The notes: generated by a model from the sequence alone, not told the origin. Counted from the first letter of the stretch, positions 464 through 16,523 are shown. The stretch is DNA of 16,523 nucleotides from an uncultured Candidatus Bathyarchaeia archaeon (GCA_964450845.1 CAYVGZ010000030.1:1-16523), one strand, 5' to 3'. Numbers and translations: made by a program.

Positions 464-1594
464 TTAACGTTTGATGTGAAATTTTTCTATGATTTTTCTT
501 GCTTTTTCCCGTTTTTTCTGATGTTCAGCGAGGAATTTATTTAATCTTTCCGTTAGTTCGGCTTTGCAATCACCACATAATATTTCGCCTGCCTTGCATT
601 GTTTTTCTCTTTCCGTTAGTTTCTTGTCGTCTTCTTCAAATAGGTAAAGAAAATACTGGAATATTGTGCAGATGTTTGGGTCTGCGCCAGTTTTTCTTTG
701 CTCTGCCGCCGTTCCTTTGCCACCTGTGAAAGCATTCCAGACTTTCCGTTTCACCACTTCTGGCTGGTCTGTAGTAAATATGGATGTTTCAGGTTCTGAA
801 GCGCTCATTTTTCCACCCACTCCCAACCCGGGCAAGAATCGACAGTGGATTTGGGCTGGTTTGTAGTAGCCGAGTTTCTGGGCTACGTCGCGTGTTACTC
901 GCCAGTACGGGTCTTGGTCTATGGCTGCTGGAATAAGGGCTGGAACATTTTCACCCGTTAGCTTCGCATGTAAAAAGCATGGAACTGCTTGAATGGCTGG
1001 CCAGAATATCCATCCAATGTTTGTGCTGTCTTGAAATCCAAAAGTAGCCTTTGTCGTTGAATAAGTTACGCGTTTTGCAACTTCCAAGGCAATGTCATAA
1101 AGCAAGCCTATGTCGTCCACATCGAAAATTATGAACGTGTTTTCGTGTTCAAAACCTAATGCAATCAAGTCTAAAGCATTTTCGTAGCCAAATTTCTTTG
1201 CTTCGTCAAGTTTAAGTTCGTCTTCTACTATGAATTTTTCGTCGTCAGTCATTTGAAAATAGAGTCTAGTTTTAAATTTGTCCTGCAAGTGTTTCGTGAA
1301 AATCCATGGGACGAGATGTCCTATGTGCACTGGTCCTGAAGGTCCTCTGCCAGTATATAAAACAAATTTTACTCCTTTCTCGTAAAGGTCTAAAACAATG
1401 TCTAAGTCGCGATGTGAAAAGAAAAGTTTTCTTCGTAGTTGAGGGTGAAGTTCGCCTGTGTATTTTGCTATTCTTCGCAGCAATTTCTCTGTTATTGGCT
1501 GGGTGCCGAACTCGCGTATTAAACGTTGATAGTCGACTTTGCCCCTAACTTCCCATGGAGTAACAACCATTTCATTTTTGTTTTCATCAACCAA
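464..1594 (-). CDS. trpS: Tryptophanyl-tRNA synthetase (archaeal type)
   Basis: VTPWEV, YTGRGPSGPVHIGH (HIGH), IPAAIDQDPY, KMSAS and C-terminal CGDCK. Start placed at TTG 1594 because GAGAGG lies 7 nt upstream; GTG 1609 and ATG 1570 are alternatives. Confidence 0.97.
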   Translation of the reverse strand: MVDENKNEMVVTPWEVRGKVDYQRLIREFGTQPITEKLLRRIAKYTGELHPQLRRKLFFSHRDLDIVLDLYEKGVKFVLYTGRGPSGPVHIGHLVPWIFTKHLQDKFKTRLYFQMTDDEKFIVEDELKLDEAKKFGYENALDLIALGFEHENTFIIFDVDDIGLLYDIALEVAKRVTYSTTKATFGFQDSTNIGWIFWPAIQAVPCFLHAKLTGENVPALIPAAIDQDPYWRVTRDVAQKLGYYKPAQIHCRFLPGLGVGGKMSASEPETSIFTTDQPEVVKRKVWNAFTGGKGTAAEQRKTGADPNICTIFQYFLYLFEEDDKKLTEREKQCKAGEILCGDCKAELTERLNKFLAEHQKKREKARKIIEKFHIKR

Positions 1595-1871
1595 GGGGAC
1601 GCCTCTCACTTAATTTGACTTCTTATAGAATTGATGGAAAACGTATTAAGTTTTGTGTGGATCAATGCTCAAGAAGACTTCATGATGTTTGGTGGAATAA
1701 GCTATAAATATGGTTTCTGCATTTGTGATTGCTGATGGTGAAGTGATGCCCTGCCAATTTACTTAAAAGGGCAAACGTTTTCTAGAAAAAAGCCAGCGAA
1801 GCACACGTATATTTTTATTAAAACTATAACAACTACATTACCAAACTTTAACCCAATTCGTGAAGGGAAAC

Positions 1872-3398
1872 ATGATGGTTGAGCTTAGAGAAGCAGAGCG
1901 CAAAACACTTTTAGCCATACAAAGGCTACGCGGAAAAGCTTCAGTTGAACAAATAGTTAATGAAACTGGATCGCCTGATGCGGCAATAATGCGTGCAGCC
2001 CTAACATTACAAGAGAAAAAGCTTGTTAAAATCAGAGAGAGAAAACAAACTATTGTAAACCTTAACAAGGAAGGAAAACTTTACGCTGAAAATCAGCTAC
2101 CTGAACGCAGAATTTTAGACACGCTCTATGATAAGGGCGGTGAAACGTTGATCGCTCACATTCCACGAGAGATAGACATTCCTCCAACTGCTATCCCTCT
2201 GGCGTTAGGCTGGTTAGTGCAGAAAAATTGGGCGGTCATAAACAAAGAAGAGAATACAATAAACCTGACCAAATACTCGCGAACTCGAAAACCTCCAAGG
2301 GGCAATGATGAAAAACTTCTCGCATTATTGGTAAAAAGACGAACGATTTTCGTTGAAGAACTTGACAAAGGCCTACAACAAGCTGTCGCCACACTAAAAA
2401 GACGCAAGCTTATAGAAACCAAGGAAAGGTCAACATACGAGCTGGAACTTACAAAAGAAGGTTCGAAGCTAGTCGAAAAAGGATTAGAAGTTACTGAAGA
2501 AGTAAGTCAGCTGACGCCAGAACTTATCATAACAAAGAAATGGCGTGAAACAAAACTGAGAAGATTCGATGTTACTGCATCTGGACCAACTGTTTATCCA
2601 GGCAAGGTTCATCCGTTGCAACAAATTATCCAACATGCACGTGAGATTTTTCTGGAAATGGGATTCACAGAAATCCGCGGACCCCTCGTTGAAACTGCCT
2701 TCTGGAATTTCGATGCTCTGTTTCAGCCCCAAGATCATCCTGCTAGAGAGATGATGGATACTTTTTATTTGGCTAATCCTAAGGCTGGAAAATTGCCGTC
2801 TAAAAATATAGTGGATGCTGTTGCCGAAGTGCATGAAAACGGTTGGATAACTGGTTCTAAAGGGTGGAGTTACAAGTGGAGCGCTGAAGAAGCCAAGAGG
2901 CTTGTTTTGCGGACACACACCACTGCTGAAACAATAAAATACCTTTCACACCATAAGAAGCCGCCCATAAAAGTGTTTTCGGTGGACAGGGTTTACCGAA
3001 ATGAGCAAGTCACATACAAAAACGTTCCAGAATTCCATCAAATCGAAGGCATAGTTGTTGACAAAAACGTGACACTTAAAGATTTGATGGGAACATTGAA
3101 AACCTTCTATGCAAGATTTGGACTGAAGAAAGTGCAGTTCTGGTCATGCTATTTCCCCTACACTGAACCTTCAGCCCAAGCAATGGTTTACCATCCGAAG
3201 CTTAAGCGTTGGATTGAGCTTTGCGGAATGGGTATTTTCAGGCCGGAGGTTTTGGCTCCCATGGGCATTAAGTATCCAGTGCTAGCTTGGGGAGGTGGGT
3301 TAGAGCGTTTGGCTATGATTGAGCTTGGTTTGGATGATATTAGGCTGCTTTATGGTAACCGTTTAGAATGGGTTAGGAGGACGCCTCTATGCCAGTGA
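1872..3398 (+). CDS. pheS: Phenylalanyl-tRNA synthetase alpha subunit (long archaeal form with N-terminal winged-helix region)
   Basis: GKVHPL, FWNFDALFQPQDHPAREMMDTF, LRTHTT, DRVYRNE, EFHQIEG, YFPYTEPS, GMGIFRPEV and AWGGGLERL. Start could be 1860 (GTG), 1872 or 1875. Confidence 0.97.
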   Translation: MMVELREAERKTLLAIQRLRGKASVEQIVNETGSPDAAIMRAALTLQEKKLVKIRERKQTIVNLNKEGKLYAENQLPERRILDTLYDKGGETLIAHIPREIDIPPTAIPLALGWLVQKNWAVINKEENTINLTKYSRTRKPPRGNDEKLLALLVKRRTIFVEELDKGLQQAVATLKRRKLIETKERSTYELELTKEGSKLVEKGLEVTEEVSQLTPELIITKKWRETKLRRFDVTASGPTVYPGKVHPLQQIIQHAREIFLEMGFTEIRGPLVETAFWNFDALFQPQDHPAREMMDTFYLANPKAGKLPSKNIVDAVAEVHENGWITGSKGWSYKWSAEEAKRLVLRTHTTAETIKYLSHHKKPPIKVFSVDRVYRNEQVTYKNVPEFHQIEGIVVDKNVTLKDLMGTLKTFYARFGLKKVQFWSCYFPYTEPSAQAMVYHPKLKRWIELCGMGIFRPEVLAPMGIKYPVLAWGGGLERLAMIELGLDDIRLLYGNRLEWVRRTPLCQ

Positions 3399-5047
3399 TT
3401 ACACTCTACGAGGAAAGGTTTTCCAAGTTTATGGGTAGGAAAACAACGGTTAAGGATATGGCTAAGTGGTTGCCTTGGATAGGGTTTGACATAGAGGAAG
3501 TGGGCGAGGATTACGTGAAGGTTGAATACAACCCGAACCGCATCGACTTTTGCAGTTACGCTGGCGTTGCAAGGGCTCTGAAAGGCTTTATTGCAAAAGA
3601 AACGGGGTTGCCCAAATATGAAGCTAAACAACCAAAAATCACGCTTACCATAGATGAGGCCGTTGCAGATGTTAGACCTTTTATGCTTGCAGCCGTAGTC
3701 CGTGACATAAAACTTGACGAAGACGCTGTTGTTGAATTAATGGAAATGCAGGAAGACATTCATTGGGGTCTTGGCAGAGATAGGAAAAAAGTTTCTATAG
3801 GCGTCCACAACTTGGATGTGGTTAAGCCGCCTTTCACTTACACGGCAGCTGAACCTGAAAGCGCAAAGTTTGTTCCTCTAGGCAAAACTGAAGAGATGAC
3901 TTTGAAAGAGATTTTGGAAAAACACGAGAAGGGCGTAGCCTATAGCCACCTCATAGACTGGGCGCCTAAATATCCACTACTGATTGATAGGGATGGGTCG
4001 GTTCTTTCAATGCCGCCTATTATAAATGGAAAGCTGACGAGGGTAGATGCCAAAACAAGGAACCTATTCTTGGATGTTACGGGCACTAATTACGATGCTG
4101 TGGAAAAAAGCTTGAAAGTGCTTGTCACTGCTTTGGCGGATGCGGGTGGCACAATAGAGAAGGTTAATGTGAAATACGTAAACCGCACGGTAATTTCGCC
4201 CAATTTGGAACAGGAGAAAATGAAGTTGAGGGTGGACTATGCCAATAAGTTGCTCGGCTTAGAACTTTCCGAAGCGGAAGCTGTAAAGTGTTTACAAAGA
4301 TGTAGGTTAGATGCGCAAAAAATGGGTAAGGGCATTTTAGAAGTGTCGATTCCGGCTTATCGAATTGACATTTTGCATGAAGTTGATTTGGTTGAGGAAG
4401 TTGCTATAGGCTATGGCTATTATAGGCTAAAGCCCTCAATTCCAACAGCCGTAACTATTGGAGAGCAGCATCCAGTTCAAAAGCTTGCAAATATGGTGCG
4501 ACAAATCATGGTAGGCTTAGGTTTCTTAGAAGTTATGAACTTCACCCTCACCAATGAGCGCCTTCATTACCATTATATGCGCATGAAAGAGGAAAAAAAC
4601 ATCAGACTCGCCAATCCTGTTTCAACAGAATATTCCATAATGCGACAGTCACTATTGCCAGGACTCATGAAGAATCTGGCTGAAAACAAACATGAAAGTT
4701 TCCCGCAGAGGCTTTTTGAAGTTTCAGACGTTGGAAAAATAAACACGAGGCTAGAGTCAATGTGCGAAAGAAATCTAAACGTAGCCGCTGTTTCATCGCA
4801 TTCAACAGCCAACTTTACCGAGGTAAAATCTTTTGCAGAAGCCTTACTTGTTAACTTAGGCTTAAAAAACTGGCAGATTAAAGAAGCAAAGCATCCAAGT
4901 TTTCTTGAAGGCAGGACAGCAGCAATCTATGTGAAAGGCAAACGTTTAGGCATTCTAGGCGAGATGCACCCAGAAGTTTTAAACAACTTTGAATTGGAGA
5001 ACTCGACAGTTGCCTTCGAAATAGATCTGGGTCTGCTACTAAAATAA
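3389..5047 (+). CDS. pheT: Phenylalanyl-tRNA synthetase beta subunit
   Basis: [65 protein letters not shown] and [15 protein letters not shown] upstream; overlaps the pheS end by 10 nt. Confidence 0.97.
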
Positions 5048-5106
5048 GAAAAACTTCCAAACTCCCCTTCACTAATCGAGCGTACGAAAAGTTCAATCTA
5101 TTTATA

Positions 5107-5422
5107 GGGGGGCTGGGCTAGTCTCAGATGGGCAGTTCGCCATCACATTTGGAATATGAGACAGTAACGTTTAATTTTTCAGAAACAATACTGTCTTGTT
5201 TGGCGATGACGGTAACGAGCCTTCTGAATCCCACTGGCTATATCCATGCAGACGGACTCAACGGAAGCAAAAAGCTTGTGATGGCGGGTTTACCCAAACA
5301 TGGGACACAGTGGGCGCGGGCGCCATAATCCCACGCCGAGAGAGCTTAACTTAGAGGAGCGCAACGCTCCACAATGAAGCTAAGTGATAGGTTACGTGGG
5401 AAACAAAAACGCCCGCGAAACA
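5107..5422 (+). ncRNA. Candidate structured non-coding RNA of unknown family (strand inferred)
   Basis: About 51% GC by hand count versus about 35% in the adjacent lines. Helices: 5138-5147/5277-5286 (10 bp), 5159-5166/5189-5196 (8 bp), 5230-5236/5308-5314 (7 bp), 5243-5248/5299-5304 (6 bp, one G-U), 5315-5322/5410-5417 (8 bp), 5329-5335/5395-5401 (7 bp), 5356-5361/5365-5370 (6 bp). TATA-like TATTTATA immediately upstream. Confidence 0.6.
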
Positions 5423-5432
5423 ACTTTTAAGT
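5418..5432 (+). promoter_or_regulatory. Putative BRE/TATA promoter of tyrS
   Basis: AAACAAC followed by TTTTAAGT about 45 nt upstream of the tyrS start; pattern match only. Confidence 0.4.
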
Positions 5433-5475
5433 CTCACCATTGCATACAACTTTAGGAAGTTAATAGAATCGGGCA

Positions 5476-6561
5476 GTGCAAAGTTTGGATATAGAAACAA
5501 AAATCGACCTGATCAAAAGACCTCCAACAGAAGAAATTCTTGTTGAAAGTGAATTAAGAGAACTTCTGCAAACCAACCCACACCCAGGGCATTATCAAGG
5601 CTTCGAAATCTCAGGACTACTACACTTGGGCAACTTCGTTGTTTCAGGCTTCAAGATAAATGACCTCCTAAAAGCAGGAATAAAATGCCAAGCATACATG
5701 GCGGATTGGCACAGCTTCATCAACAACAAATTCGGTGGAAAATGGGATAAAATTCTGACAGCTGCAAAATACTATGCAGAAGCCTTCAAATTCTTCTGTC
5801 CCGGCGTAAAAATTGTCGTAGGCTCAGAACTATATCATAACAACGATGAATACTGGCGAAACCTCGTAAAGTTTGCCAAGCACATGACTCTCAGCAGAAC
5901 GCTTAGATGCTTGACGATAATGGGCAGAAGCGAAAACGAAAAACTTGATCTATCGCAATATTTTTATCCGCCAATGCAAGCCGTCGACGTACACGAGATA
6001 GGCGCAGACATACCTCACGGCGGCTTAGACCAAAGAAAGGCACATGTCTTAGCCAGAGAAGTTTTTCCAAAAATGGGTTGGCAAAAACCAGTTGCATTAC
6101 ATCATCATTTGTTAATGGGCATAGCCGAACCAGTGAAACTCCAAGCAAAAGACAAACTAGAACAAGTTATTGCCAGCAAGATGAGCAAGTCAAAACCATG
6201 GACAGCCATATTCGTCCACGACAATGAAGAACAAATAAAAGAAAAAATGCAAAAAGCATGGTGCCCAGAGAAACAAACAGAAATGAACCCCATATTGGAA
6301 ATAGTTAAACACGTAATCTTCCACGAAAAACAAACGTTCAGCATAGAACGACCAACAAAATTTGGCGGCACAATCGAATTCGAAAACTACAACGAACTAG
6401 AAAAAGCCTATAGAAACGGTAATCTTCATCCGCAAGACTTGAAAAACGCCATCGCAAAGGAAATAGCCACAATACTTGAACCTATAAGAAGATATTTCGA
6501 AAGCAACAAGGAAGCGCAAAAATGCTTAGACTTCATGAAAACTGCCGAGATAACAAGGTAA
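5476..6561 (+). CDS. tyrS: Tyrosyl-tRNA synthetase (archaeal type)
   Basis: YQGFEISGLLHLGN (HIGH variant), ADWHS, YPPMQAVD, GGLDQRKAH, KMSKS and LHPQDLK. Confidence 0.97.
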   Translation: MQSLDIETKIDLIKRPPTEEILVESELRELLQTNPHPGHYQGFEISGLLHLGNFVVSGFKINDLLKAGIKCQAYMADWHSFINNKFGGKWDKILTAAKYYAEAFKFFCPGVKIVVGSELYHNNDEYWRNLVKFAKHMTLSRTLRCLTIMGRSENEKLDLSQYFYPPMQAVDVHEIGADIPHGGLDQRKAHVLAREVFPKMGWQKPVALHHHLLMGIAEPVKLQAKDKLEQVIASKMSKSKPWTAIFVHDNEEQIKEKMQKAWCPEKQTEMNPILEIVKHVIFHEKQTFSIERPTKFGGTIEFENYNELEKAYRNGNLHPQDLKNAIAKEIATILEPIRRYFESNKEAQKCLDFMKTAEITR

Positions 6562-6567
6562 ACCCTC

Positions 6568-6984
6568 TTGTCAACGCATCTTCAAGAGAAAGAGGAGAAA
6601 ATTCTGCAAGTTTTGGAATGCCTAGCTGAAGAATCAGCAAAAGGAATACCCATAATCGTAGAAGGCAAAAACGACATCGAAGCTTTAAGAGTTTTAGGTA
6701 TTGAAGGAACAATAATATCTGCAAAAACAGGCGGAAAATCCATTCTCGACGTTATCTCAGAAGTAGAAAAACTCGCAGCGAAAGAGGTAATCATGTTATT
6801 AGACTTTGACAGACGAGGAAAAGAATGGACAAAACGCTTAAAACAAAACCTAGAGAAAGCAAAAACAAAAATCAACCTCACCTTCTGGAGCAGACTTTTG
6901 GAGCTTGTAGGCACAGAAGTGAAAGACATCGAAGGTTTAGCCACCTACATGGAAACCTTAAAGAGGAAGATTCACAATTCATAA
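6568..6984 (+). CDS. Small stand-alone TOPRIM-domain protein (primase/RNase M5-like)
   Basis: IIVEGKNDIEAL and LLDFDRRG TOPRIM motifs; TTG start 6 nt after the tyrS stop. Confidence 0.9.
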   Translation: MSTHLQEKEEKILQVLECLAEESAKGIPIIVEGKNDIEALRVLGIEGTIISAKTGGKSILDVISEVEKLAAKEVIMLLDFDRRGKEWTKRLKQNLEKAKTKINLTFWSRLLELVGTEVKDIEGLATYMETLKRKIHNS

Positions 6985-7093
6985 AACTAATAAAGAGCAA
7001 AAATAAATAATCTCGTGAATTGAGAGCACGATTCTCTCATCATGCGATTAAAACTAACCATAACCATAACTGATCAATCGGAGGTGGACACTT

Positions 7094-8236
7094 ACGGGTT
7101 CATCACAAACGTTTACCATAAAGTATGTTATACACGCAAATTTCGAAATAGAAGGGGTAGTTGAAAAACCGGACGTTATAGGAGCAGTTTTTGGCCAAAC
7201 AGAAGGACTTTTTGGACCAGAACTCGACCTAAGGGAACTGCAGAAATCAGGCAGGATTGGAAGAATAGAAATTGAACTTCATTCGAAACAGGACAAAACA
7301 ACAGGTGCCATCACTATTCCAACAAGCTTAGACAAGGTTTCCACAGCCCTCATTGCGGCAAGCATAGAAAGCATAAACAGGGTTGGACCATGCGCCGCGA
7401 AGGTGACACTTATGAAAATTGAAGATGTCAGAGAAGCCCGAAGAAAAGTGATAATTGACAGAGCCAAGGACATTCTTCATAAATGGACAATTGAATCCAT
7501 GCCATCAGTAGATGAAGTCTTCAAAGAGGTCGCGGAGACGCTAAAAATTGCAAAAGTCGAAAAGTATGGACCAGACGAATTGTCCGCTGGACCAGAAGTC
7601 GCCAGTTCCCAGAAGATAATTGTTGTTGAGGGAAGAGCAGACGTAATAAATCTCATGCGATGTGGATTGCTCAACGTATTAGCCTTAGAAGGGGCGAAAG
7701 TTCCCGACACAATCAAGAAGCTTTCCAAAGAAAAAGAGATAACAGCCTTTCTCGACGGAGACAGAGGTGGAGACCTAATCCTAAAGGAGCTTTTGCAAGT
7801 CACAGAAACAAAGTACATTGCTAGGGCACCGAGAGGAAAAGAAGTTGAAGAGCTAAATTGCAAAGAAATATTTGAAGCCTTGGAAGCCAAAGTTCCAATG
7901 GAAGAGCCATCCAAACCGAAAAGGGAGAAGCTGAAAATAGAGATTCCAAACGAAATTGCTCAACTAATGAAAGGGCTGGAAGGCAGTCTAGAGGCTGTTC
8001 TCCTAAATGAAAAGTTGGAACAAATGGAGCGGTTGCCAGTAAGCCAGCTAGCCGAGAAACTCCAGCAAATGGAAGGAGTTGACACGGTTGTCTTTGACGG
8101 TATTATAACGCAAAGAATCGTTGATGTGGCAACCGAGAAAAACATTAAACAAATTATTGCTTCGCGTATGTCAGAGGCAGTTAAGCCATCATTAACGGTT
8201 CAACTACTGACATTCTCAGACATAAAAACATCATAG
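7094..8236 (+). CDS. dnaG: Archaeal DnaG (bacterial-type primase, exosome-associated)
   Basis: The frame of ORF 7403..8236 is open back to 7070 and encodes the conserved N-terminus KYVIHANFEIEGVVEKPDVIGAVFGQTEGLFGPELDLRELQKSGRIGRI. TOPRIM motifs IIVVEGRADV and FLDGDRGG. Start inferred at ACG 7094 from the SD GGAGGTGG at 7080-7087. Confidence 0.93.
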   Translation, partial: TGSSQTFTIKYVIHANFEIEGVVEKPDVIGAVFGQTEGLFGPELDLRELQKSGRIGRIEIELHSKQDKTTGAITIPTSLDKVSTALIAASIESINRVGPCAAKVTLMKIEDVREARRKVIIDRAKDILHKWTIESMPSVDEVFKEVAETLKIAKVEKYGPDELSAGPEVASSQKIIVVEGRADVINLMRCGLLNVLALEGAKVPDTIKKLSKEKEITAFLDGDRGGDLILKELLQVTETKYIARAPRGKEVEELNCKEIFEALEAKVPMEEPSKPKREKLKIEIPNEIAQLMKGLEGSLEAVLLNEKLEQMERLPVSQLAEKLQQMEGVDTVVFDGIITQRIVDVATEKNIKQIIASRMSEAVKPSLTVQLLTFSDIKTS

Positions 8237-16356: not shown

Positions 16357-16523
16357 GGGCTGGCGAGTTGGTGTGTGGCTTTCGAGCTTCATACAAGAGG
16401 CTTGAGGAAACTCCGCCCACACGTAGAATTGCAACGTCCGCAAGGGCGTAAGGCGAGAGCCTTGGCTACGGAGCAGAAACGAAACGTCCATCCTGCAAGT
16501 GTCTATGATGCATGCTAAGTTGT
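16357..16523 (+). ncRNA. rnpB: RNase P RNA, 5' part (continues beyond the window)
   Basis: GAGGAAACTCC (CR-I/P4 5' strand) at 16404-16414, GNRA hairpins ACGTCC-GCAA-GGGCGT (16434-16449) and AAGGC-GAGA-GCCTT (16450-16463), and GCAGAAACG at 16474-16482. Begins after a T-run, divergent from the AK6 gene. Confidence 0.88.

Follow-up and report, generated by a model that had tools for sequence, protein, structure and literature searches.

The pheT-tyrS gap of an uncultured Candidatus Bathyarchaeia archaeon contains a genuine and deeply conserved archaeal RNA gene for which Rfam has no entry and literature searches gave no description. The gene was studied in a 16,523-nt stretch of DNA (GCA_964450845.1, CAYVGZ010000030.1:1-16523; the window, from whose first letter all positions are counted), which comes from a Bathyarchaeia metagenome-assembled genome (MAG) that is 93% complete and comprises 120 contigs totalling 1.64 Mb. 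Judged by promoter spacing and a run of T residues, the gene would occupy 5199-5424 on the plus strand and specify a structured RNA of about 225 nt. From its architecture we predict, at about even odds, that this RNA is a new variant of the H/ACA-type L7Ae/Cbf5 ribonucleoprotein (RNP) RNAs, built of two modules. A first-pass annotation had proposed a pseudoknotted RNA of about 310 nt in this gap; the RNA is smaller than that and simpler in topology. In what follows G000 is the window's own MAG, other G numbers are genomes and L numbers are related loci.

When 60 relatives were searched at the DNA level, the element was recovered from 46 of the 61 genomes covered. Its best-conserved part corresponds to window 5245-5437, at 70-89% DNA identity, and the conservation extends over 200 nt where the neighbouring proteins had fallen to 37-83% identity. 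A degenerate pattern for the 3' domain matched in more than 100 Bathyarchaeota/Bathyarchaeia MAGs, and tblastn placed the element directly 5' of tyrS, on the same strand, at nearly all loci, with pheT upstream in many. Two covariance models extended the range: R1, built on the core of the structure, matched every Bathyarchaeia family sampled and gave weaker matches in five families of other classes, while R2, a model of module 2 alone, found matches in 62 of the 151 genomes sampled from the phylum, some of them complete and 1.3-1.84 Mb in size, with a single match in all but two. R2 had zero matches in three large families (f15, f19 and f24) of the phylum samples. The homology of the other-class matches is independently supported because they, too, nearly always lie between pheT and tyrS, and their alignments retain GAGAG, GAG, AUGA, GUGUUAG and GGG-N-ACA. 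A scan of the region against Rfam 15 returned nothing at gathering scores and, at E<=10, just chance matches to small nucleolar RNA (snoRNA) and microRNA families; distant homologous loci had no match in an Rfam scan, the literature searches turned up no description of the RNA, and viral contigs held no exact match to the module-2 pattern.

RNAalifold, applied to 20-27 relatives, gave a nested structure, and R1 was then built on its core; the model scored 219.7 bits on window 5225-5418. The consensus consists of eight helices and a 5' kink-turn (K-turn) hairpin (Table 1), and the two modules abut with zero spacer, as the first-pass annotation had seen for its 5' and 3' domains. R1 was used to align 88 matches (alignment A5, 88 rows), and pair statistics were taken on the 85 distinct rows. 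Standard pairs were present in 96.4% of cells, 28 of the 49 pairs showed both-sided (compensatory) changes, and the observed pairing values were reached by 0 of 500 shuffles; when the 3' partners were slid by 1-3 columns, pairing fell to 31-46%. A5 was fitted to the model, and the same compensatory changes are visible in MAFFT alignments, e.g. CCCACTG/CAGTGGG replaced by CCCACCG/CGGTGGG or CCCGCCG/CGGCGGG. When mutual information was computed for every pair of columns, only the nested helices emerged and no pseudoknot.

In module 1, compensatory change affected all 7 pairs of the outer stem Pa, 4 of the 5 pairs of Pb and 2 of the 6 pairs of Pc; ACCCA and the module 1 ACA were 100% conserved among 81 distinct sequences; and the tip helix Pd varied in length, with 0 to about 25 extra nt, its pairing being kept. 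Module 2 has an A-rich variable loop between Pe and Pf, and the A and C of its ACA were 96% conserved in the same 81-sequence set. Of about 80 related loci, 59 have the 5' K-turn hairpin, and some families are without it; its GA/GA dinucleotides are conserved, and its C stem covaries (GGC/GCC, AGC/GCU, GGC/GCU).

The block aGACAGYAAYRTTTAAT (5159-5176) is conserved across Bathyarchaeia and contains elements resembling a transcription factor B recognition element (BRE) and a TATA box. It lies about 25 nt 5' of the K-turn hairpin, or about 24 nt 5' of helix Pa where the hairpin is absent, i.e. the distance between block and RNA is fixed with or without the hairpin. Boxes of this form, AAAYNTTTAWA, also stand upstream of tRNA and signal recognition particle (SRP) RNA genes in the window's own genome. 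The block would therefore be the promoter of the RNA, and its position puts the 5' end of the RNA near 5199. At the other end, AAACAACTTTTAAGT is conserved directly 3' of the last helix in most loci, about 55 nt before the tyrS start, and has the form of the tRNA promoters of the same genome. An insert of about 25 nt parts AAACAACTTTTAAGT from the RNA in five loci (L028, L045, L052, L058 and L090), so it is a separate unit. Given its promoter form and its distance from the tyrS start, AAACAACTTTTAAGT is probably the tyrS promoter, and its T-run probably terminates the RNA. With a 5' end near 5199 and a 3' end at the T-run, the RNA would measure about 225 nt and not 310. Its assignment to the plus strand rests on G.U pairs, invariant in Pc and occurring as variants in other places, which on the minus strand would be C.A mismatches. 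Where the RNA begins and ends, what the promoter-like boxes do, which motifs form K-turns, which proteins bind and how the RNA acts are all inferred.

What the first-pass annotation had read in the gap was partly borne out. TATA-like sequences do flank the block on both sides (5100-5106 and 5425-5431), and the block is GC-rich, at 53.5% GC over 5200-5399, although its flanks have about 39-41% and not the roughly 35% given. Seven helices had been claimed and four specified. Three of these, 5230-5236/5308-5314 (Pa), 5243-5248/5299-5304 (Pb) and 5315-5322/5410-5417 (Pe), are in the sequence and covary in relatives. The remaining one, 5138-5147/5277-5286, which would make the pseudoknot, has 10 perfectly complementary bp in this sequence but is not conserved: complementarity beat shuffles (p<=0.05) in 3 of 67 relatives, which is the chance rate. 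Its 5' arm, moreover, lies upstream of the conserved promoter block. The pseudoknot is therefore unsupported, in keeping with the mutual-information scan. The proposal that the RNA is non-coding, structured, conserved, transcribed on its own and encoded on the plus strand is supported by the putative promoter of its own, the covariation and the G.U pairs. Nothing was found for a ribozyme. The description as an undescribed class was too strong, as both modules carry the parts list of archaeal H/ACA hairpins.

Evidence on how the RNA acts came from loci at which it is interrupted. In L032 (G019:C2:143000-156000), L033 (G011:C84) and L034 (G023:C6:126000-138000), the host RNA gene is split by integrative elements some 5-6 kb long. 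The arrangement at these loci is, in order, (i) a 5' gene fragment (promoter, K-turn hairpin and module 1 as far as ...GGGTTTACCCAAAC); (ii) a tyrosine-recombinase gene (PF00589, E 1e-14 to 1e-21); (iii) a complete copy of the RNA; (iv) cargo of about 4-5 kb; and (v) the 3' portion of the host gene from GGGTTTACCCAA, which adjoins tyrS in L032 and L033. In L034, tyrS was not found within the stretch examined. L078 and L106 have the same 3' gene fragment beside tyrS. Apart from the integrases, the cargo could not be annotated beyond a single, weak integrase-like match and some PHROG families of unknown function. The element-borne copies have diverged from the host gene with the fold kept by compensatory changes: Pa is GTCTCAC/GTGAGAC (CCCACTG/CAGTGGG in the host), Pe is ACGGGC/GCCCGT, and the core is GAGTTTTACCCAATC, which differs from the host core GGGTTTACCCAAAC.

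By our inference the RNA gene serves these elements as chromosomal attachment site (attB), in the way that tRNA genes serve others. The resemblance to tRNA and transfer-messenger RNA (tmRNA) integration sites would lie in the use of a conserved small-RNA gene as the attB of tyrosine-recombinase elements, with a short duplicated core; unlike at those sites, the present elements do not rebuild the gene from a part supplied by the element's own attachment site (attP), and instead carry a whole divergent copy with a different core. Since insertion splits the host gene, the elements would carry a functional substitute, and a split gene accompanied by a replacement copy suggests a trans-acting RNA whose loss is costly. 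The complete copy lies 4-5 kb away from tyrS, which argues against a leader acting in cis on that gene.

Table 1. Positions of the parts of the RNA, its flanking signals and the neighbouring genes in the window.
Feature	Position	Strand	Remarks
5' K-turn hairpin	5202-5221	+	GGC (C stem), GAU (bulge), GA, loop, GA, GCC
Module 1	5230-5314	+	Pa, Pb, loop, Pc, K-turn, Pd, ACA
Module 1 outer stem Pa	5230-5236/5308-5314	+	
Module 1 helix Pb	5244-5248/5299-5303	+	5 bp
Module 1 conserved loop	CAGAC 5249-5253, ACCCAAA 5292-5298	+	near-invariant strands CAGAC, ACCCAAR
Module 1 helix Pc	5254-5259/5286-5291	+	
Module 1 putative K-turn	GA 5264-5265, UGU-GA 5277-5281	+	
Module 1 tip Pd	5266-5268/5274-5276	+	
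Module 1 invariant ACA	5305-5307	+	one nucleotide 3' of Pb
Module 2	5315-5417	+	Pe, Pf, loop, Pg, K-turn-like loop, Ph, ACA
Module 2 outer stem Pe	5315-5321/5411-5417	+	
Module 2 helix Pf	5330-5337/5390-5400	+	UUA bulge
Module 2 invariant loop	GAGAGA 5338-5343, GAUA 5386-5389	+	
Module 2 helix Pg	5344-5350/5379-5385	+	
Module 2 K-turn-like loop	5351-5355, 5371-5378 (AAUGA)	+	second GA motif: CUGA 5' strand, AAUGA 3' strand
Module 2 tip Ph	5356-5361/5365-5370	+	
Module 2 ACA	5403-5405	+	two nucleotides 3' of Pf
Putative promoter of the RNA gene	5161-5176	+	BRE-like ACAGTAAC, then TATA box GTTTAAT 5169-5175
AAACAACTTTTAAGT	5418-5432	+	promoter-like for tyrS (BRE and TATA); T-run is the probable RNA end
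Crossover core GGGTTTACCCAAACA	5286-5300	+	used by integrase-bearing elements in relatives
trpS-like	464-1609	minus	
pheS	1860-3398		
pheT	3389-5047		
pheT-tyrS gap	5048-5475		
tyrS	5476-6561		start probably TTG 5485; genes for a small and a DnaG-like Toprim protein also nearby

The H/ACA assignment is suggested by the parts that recur in both modules. In each, a conserved internal loop separates a lower helix from an upper one of about 6-7 bp, a putative K-turn sits above, and an invariant ACA follows the lower helix after 1-2 nt. The succession of lower helix, internal loop and upper helix that characterizes H/ACA RNAs is supported by covariation in both, with Pb having only 5 bp where about 7-10 bp are usual. 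K-turn signatures (a 5'-strand GA, a 3'-strand NNU-GA and an apical C stem) can be recognized in both modules; in the other-class modules the K-turn has the form CUGA-hairpin-AAUGA, and in L173 it is canonical. The non-canonical stem is directed toward the pocket, an orientation which we take, from Pyrococcus Pf9, to be that of the H/ACA K-loop. In H/ACA RNAs the ACA box comes right after the lower helix, with 14-16 nt between it and the top of the pocket, and in both present modules an ACA likewise follows the lower helix. The distance from Pg to ACA is 15 nt in 13 of 15 other-class sequences, 17 nt in three Bathyarchaeia sequences outside the window's family and about 18 nt in the window's family, where Pf carries a 3-nt bulge.

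In our favoured reading, a stable, trans-acting RNA would be transcribed from its own BRE/TATA promoter and would end at the T-run that overlaps the tyrS promoter; it folds into a row consisting of the 5' K-turn hairpin followed by two long irregular hairpins with H/ACA guide parts. Most probably, L7Ae would assemble on the K-turns and Cbf5-Nop10-Gar1 on helix 1 and the ACA, and the invariant loops of the resulting RNP would act on a conserved RNA. Its role could then be that of a pseudouridylation guide with non-canonical pairing or that of a non-modifying chaperone.

Comparison with known RNAs of this kind shows both likenesses and differences. Classic archaeal H/ACA small RNAs (sRNAs), such as Pyrococcus Pab91 and Sulfolobus Sso1/sR115 and sR435, have the same lower helix, loop, upper helix and apical K-turn or K-loop, and likewise an ACA just 3' of the lower helix and about 15 nt from the upper helix; in Euryarchaeota there are one to three such hairpins per RNA. 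Unlike these, the present modules are clamped by an extra outer stem which makes the ACA internal, there is an additional 5' K-turn hairpin, the loops are invariant across classes yet without a canonical match in rRNA or tRNA, and the position between pheT and tyrS is fixed. The atypical H/ACA-like RNAs of Pyrobaculum and Sulfolobus, which belong to the same phylum, are non-classic and still bind L7Ae and Cbf5-Nop10 (PMC11077068); the present RNA could be a further non-classic variant of the H/ACA hairpin, in this case with an extra stem.

Several observations weigh against the H/ACA assignment. The motif rules for archaeal H/ACA RNAs give a K-turn, a helix 2 of 5-6 bp and a 3' ACA (PMC2651775), whereas helix 2 is about 7 bp here and the K-turn bulge of the window's module 2 is 5 nt. 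Neither ACA lies in a tail or hinge: both are in internal loops closed by the covarying stems Pa and Pe. The lower loop of module 2 (GAGAGA/GUGWUAG) could also be a closed purine-rich motif and not an open pocket. The most important difference is that no target, to which a guide is by definition complementary, could be found. All internal loops were compared, allowing wobble pairs and trying more than one register, with the 31 tRNAs of G000 and the 16S and 23S rRNA of G010, a relative of the same family that was used because the window's MAG has no rRNA genes. With thresholds of at least 8 contiguous pairs, or at most 2 mismatches, no rRNA or tRNA site showed bipartite complementarity around an unpaired U, and no match rose above the shuffled controls; the best match to rRNA under looser settings, with 11 of 14 positions paired, equalled the commonest maximum in shuffled rRNA. 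This negative scan is not decisive, as the eight sites of the classic Sulfolobus H/ACA RNA sR435 are weakly paired, with bulges and mismatches, so that its targets are hard to predict (PMC11077068). A whole-genome target scan was uninformative, since purine-rich guides with wobble pairs match AT-rich DNA everywhere. The tyrS neighbour and PMC2651775 suggested a guide for pseudouridine 35 of pre-tRNA-Tyr, an idea that was rejected: no loop strand begins with the CAG needed for C32-U33-G34.

As the H/ACA assignment is drawn entirely from architecture, a serious rival, though a clearly less probable one, is that the RNA forms a trans-acting, L7Ae-binding RNP of a class of its own, unrelated to Cbf5 and H/ACA, in which the ACA boxes and their spacings are a structural coincidence. 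The evidence of structure, conservation and trans action is identical for the two. The empty search for H/ACA-type targets, the covarying C stem of the K-turn hairpin, the enclosure of the ACA boxes within outer stems, unlike in any classic H/ACA RNA, and the order pheS-pheT-RNA-tyrS-Toprim-DnaG-like held across classes would all suit such an RNP; a role in translation or RNA processing is hinted at only by the aminoacyl-tRNA synthetase and Toprim/DnaG-like neighbours. It has more difficulty in accounting for two modules that each join helix, loop, helix, K-turn and ACA in the K-loop orientation, a double chance that is unlikely, and for a spacing of exactly 15 nt in most lineages outside Bathyarchaeia.

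Rather unlikely, in our estimate, is the wider proposal that the RNA belongs to an ancient, unrecognised Thermoproteota RNP, whether H/ACA-like or a look-alike, that acts not as a pseudouridylation guide but as an important chaperone or processing factor, either the counterpart of snR30/U17 or of no known RNA. It would follow from the importance of such an RNA that elements which split the gene must bring a replacement copy. snR30/U17 is a eukaryotic H/ACA snoRNA that does not modify, and elements in its 3'-hairpin loop bind pre-rRNA. Compared by architecture alone, both RNAs have two hairpins and conserved internal-loop elements; the present RNA differs in lacking an H box, since its modules abut with no hinge, and in its archaeal context.

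We consider it improbable that the RNA is a leader or operon element acting in cis on tyrS or pheST-tyrS, e.g. an attenuator that senses tyrosyl-tRNA synthetase (TyrRS) or tRNA with the CTTTTAAG T-run as its regulated terminator. Such a leader would be consistent with the position of the RNA, which in most loci immediately precedes tyrS in the same orientation, often by 45-75 nt, and with the persistence of this synteny in other classes where TyrRS is only about 40% identical. However, the RNA has a putative promoter of its own and a tyrS promoter-like box stands between it and tyrS; tyrS is divergent from the RNA in two genomes (L188 and L190); it is 0.3-3 kb off, or not found within the stretch examined, in more than 12 loci; and the elements that split the host copy supply theirs at a distance of 4-5 kb. 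The regulatory leader that the first-pass annotation had offered as one option is thus not supported. A T-box in particular was rejected: UGGC (5282-5285) varies freely in relatives and GGUGGG covaries as the 3' half of helix Pa, so there is no T-box-like site for the tRNA end; the Rfam T-box model gave no match, and RNA and tyrS each have their own promoter-like box. The least probable reading, that there is no RNA gene but a small protein (an ATG open reading frame of 66 aa, 5128-5328, overlaps the 5' half) or a conserved attachment-site or promoter DNA (the site is an integration target), is contradicted by the absence of a Pfam match for this frame, whose first 70 nt are in unconserved sequence, by variation that consists of compensatory pair changes and Pd indels of many lengths, and by DNA conservation that extends over 200 nt while the neighbouring proteins diverge.

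Other known RNAs were also considered, and the first-pass view that this is not an SRP RNA, RNase P RNA, tRNA, T-box or group I intron holds, as does its placing of the RNase P RNA gene elsewhere in the window. The region had no match to SRP RNA (RF01857) or RNase P RNA (RF00373) even at E<=10, and both genes are found elsewhere: the SRP RNA of the genome is at contig C83:5225-5539 (158 bits), and the 5' part of the RNase P RNA (RF00373) is at window 16363-16523 (+; 75.6 bits, E 1e-19), a match that is below the gathering score and was missed by the whole-genome family search because the contig end cuts the gene. A box C/D sRNA was rejected on the grounds that there are isolated K-turns only, with no D box or guide spacing, and that 225 nt is far too long. 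ARAGORN found no tRNA in the window or the distant loci, relaxed settings giving only noise; Pe (7 bp and an A) resembles an acceptor stem, but other classes do not conserve its sequence. The sole tRNA-Tyr(GTA) reported by ARAGORN in G000 is on contig C1, where it belongs to a dense cluster of 17 tRNA genes at about 168-186 kb. Only about 31 tRNAs, and no rRNA genes, are seen in the archaeal portion of the bin.

The surroundings of the gene are themselves well conserved. The order pheS-pheT-[RNA]-tyrS-small Toprim-DnaG-like Toprim (window 464-8236) is maintained from Bathyarchaeia into other classes of the phylum, and from pheS to the DnaG-like gene it holds even at a TyrRS identity of only about 40%. 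A class I W/Y-type synthetase (trpS-like) is often divergent upstream. In several Bathyarchaeia lineages (L025, L030, L063, L073 and L087) a tRNA gene (3' end ...GGTTCAAATCCCAGCCCCGGCCC) replaces pheT immediately 5' of the RNA promoter. The start of tyrS is probably TTG 5485 (LDIETKIDL...) and not GTG 5476: tblastn alignments to relatives open at residue 3-4, and the homologues carry TTGGAYATAGAAAC there.

A repeat of about 50 nt is also present upstream of the RNA (window 5088-5130), in which AAAGTTCAAYCTATATATAAGGGG is followed by GGTCTAGTC..GCAGAGAGCAA. G000 has 35 copies, e.g. at C2:304, C22:17026 and C28:6468 (minus strand). The repeat has the look of a strong TATA promoter whose initially transcribed region is conserved; the copy in the window stands between pheT and the RNA's own promoter, oriented toward the RNA, a place that a copy also occupies in close genera. 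Its interpretation as a C/D sRNA promoter was rejected, as a C-box-like word follows only 5 of the 35 copies against a background of 5%.

To our knowledge the large, broadly conserved non-coding RNAs of archaea are few, namely rRNA, tRNA, RNase P RNA and SRP RNA. A broadly conserved RNA at a fixed chromosomal position that has no family in Rfam 15 is an addition to this short list, and the covariance models R1 and R2 would allow its gene to be annotated in hundreds of archaeal genomes. The splitting of the gene by elements that bring a diverged, structure-preserving copy is an unusual kind of genetic evidence for importance, albeit indirect, in an uncultured lineage. If the RNA is of the H/ACA type, it would raise the question of what its invariant loops recognise when they have no match in rRNA, and it would widen the architecture of the family to nested modules with internal ACA boxes.

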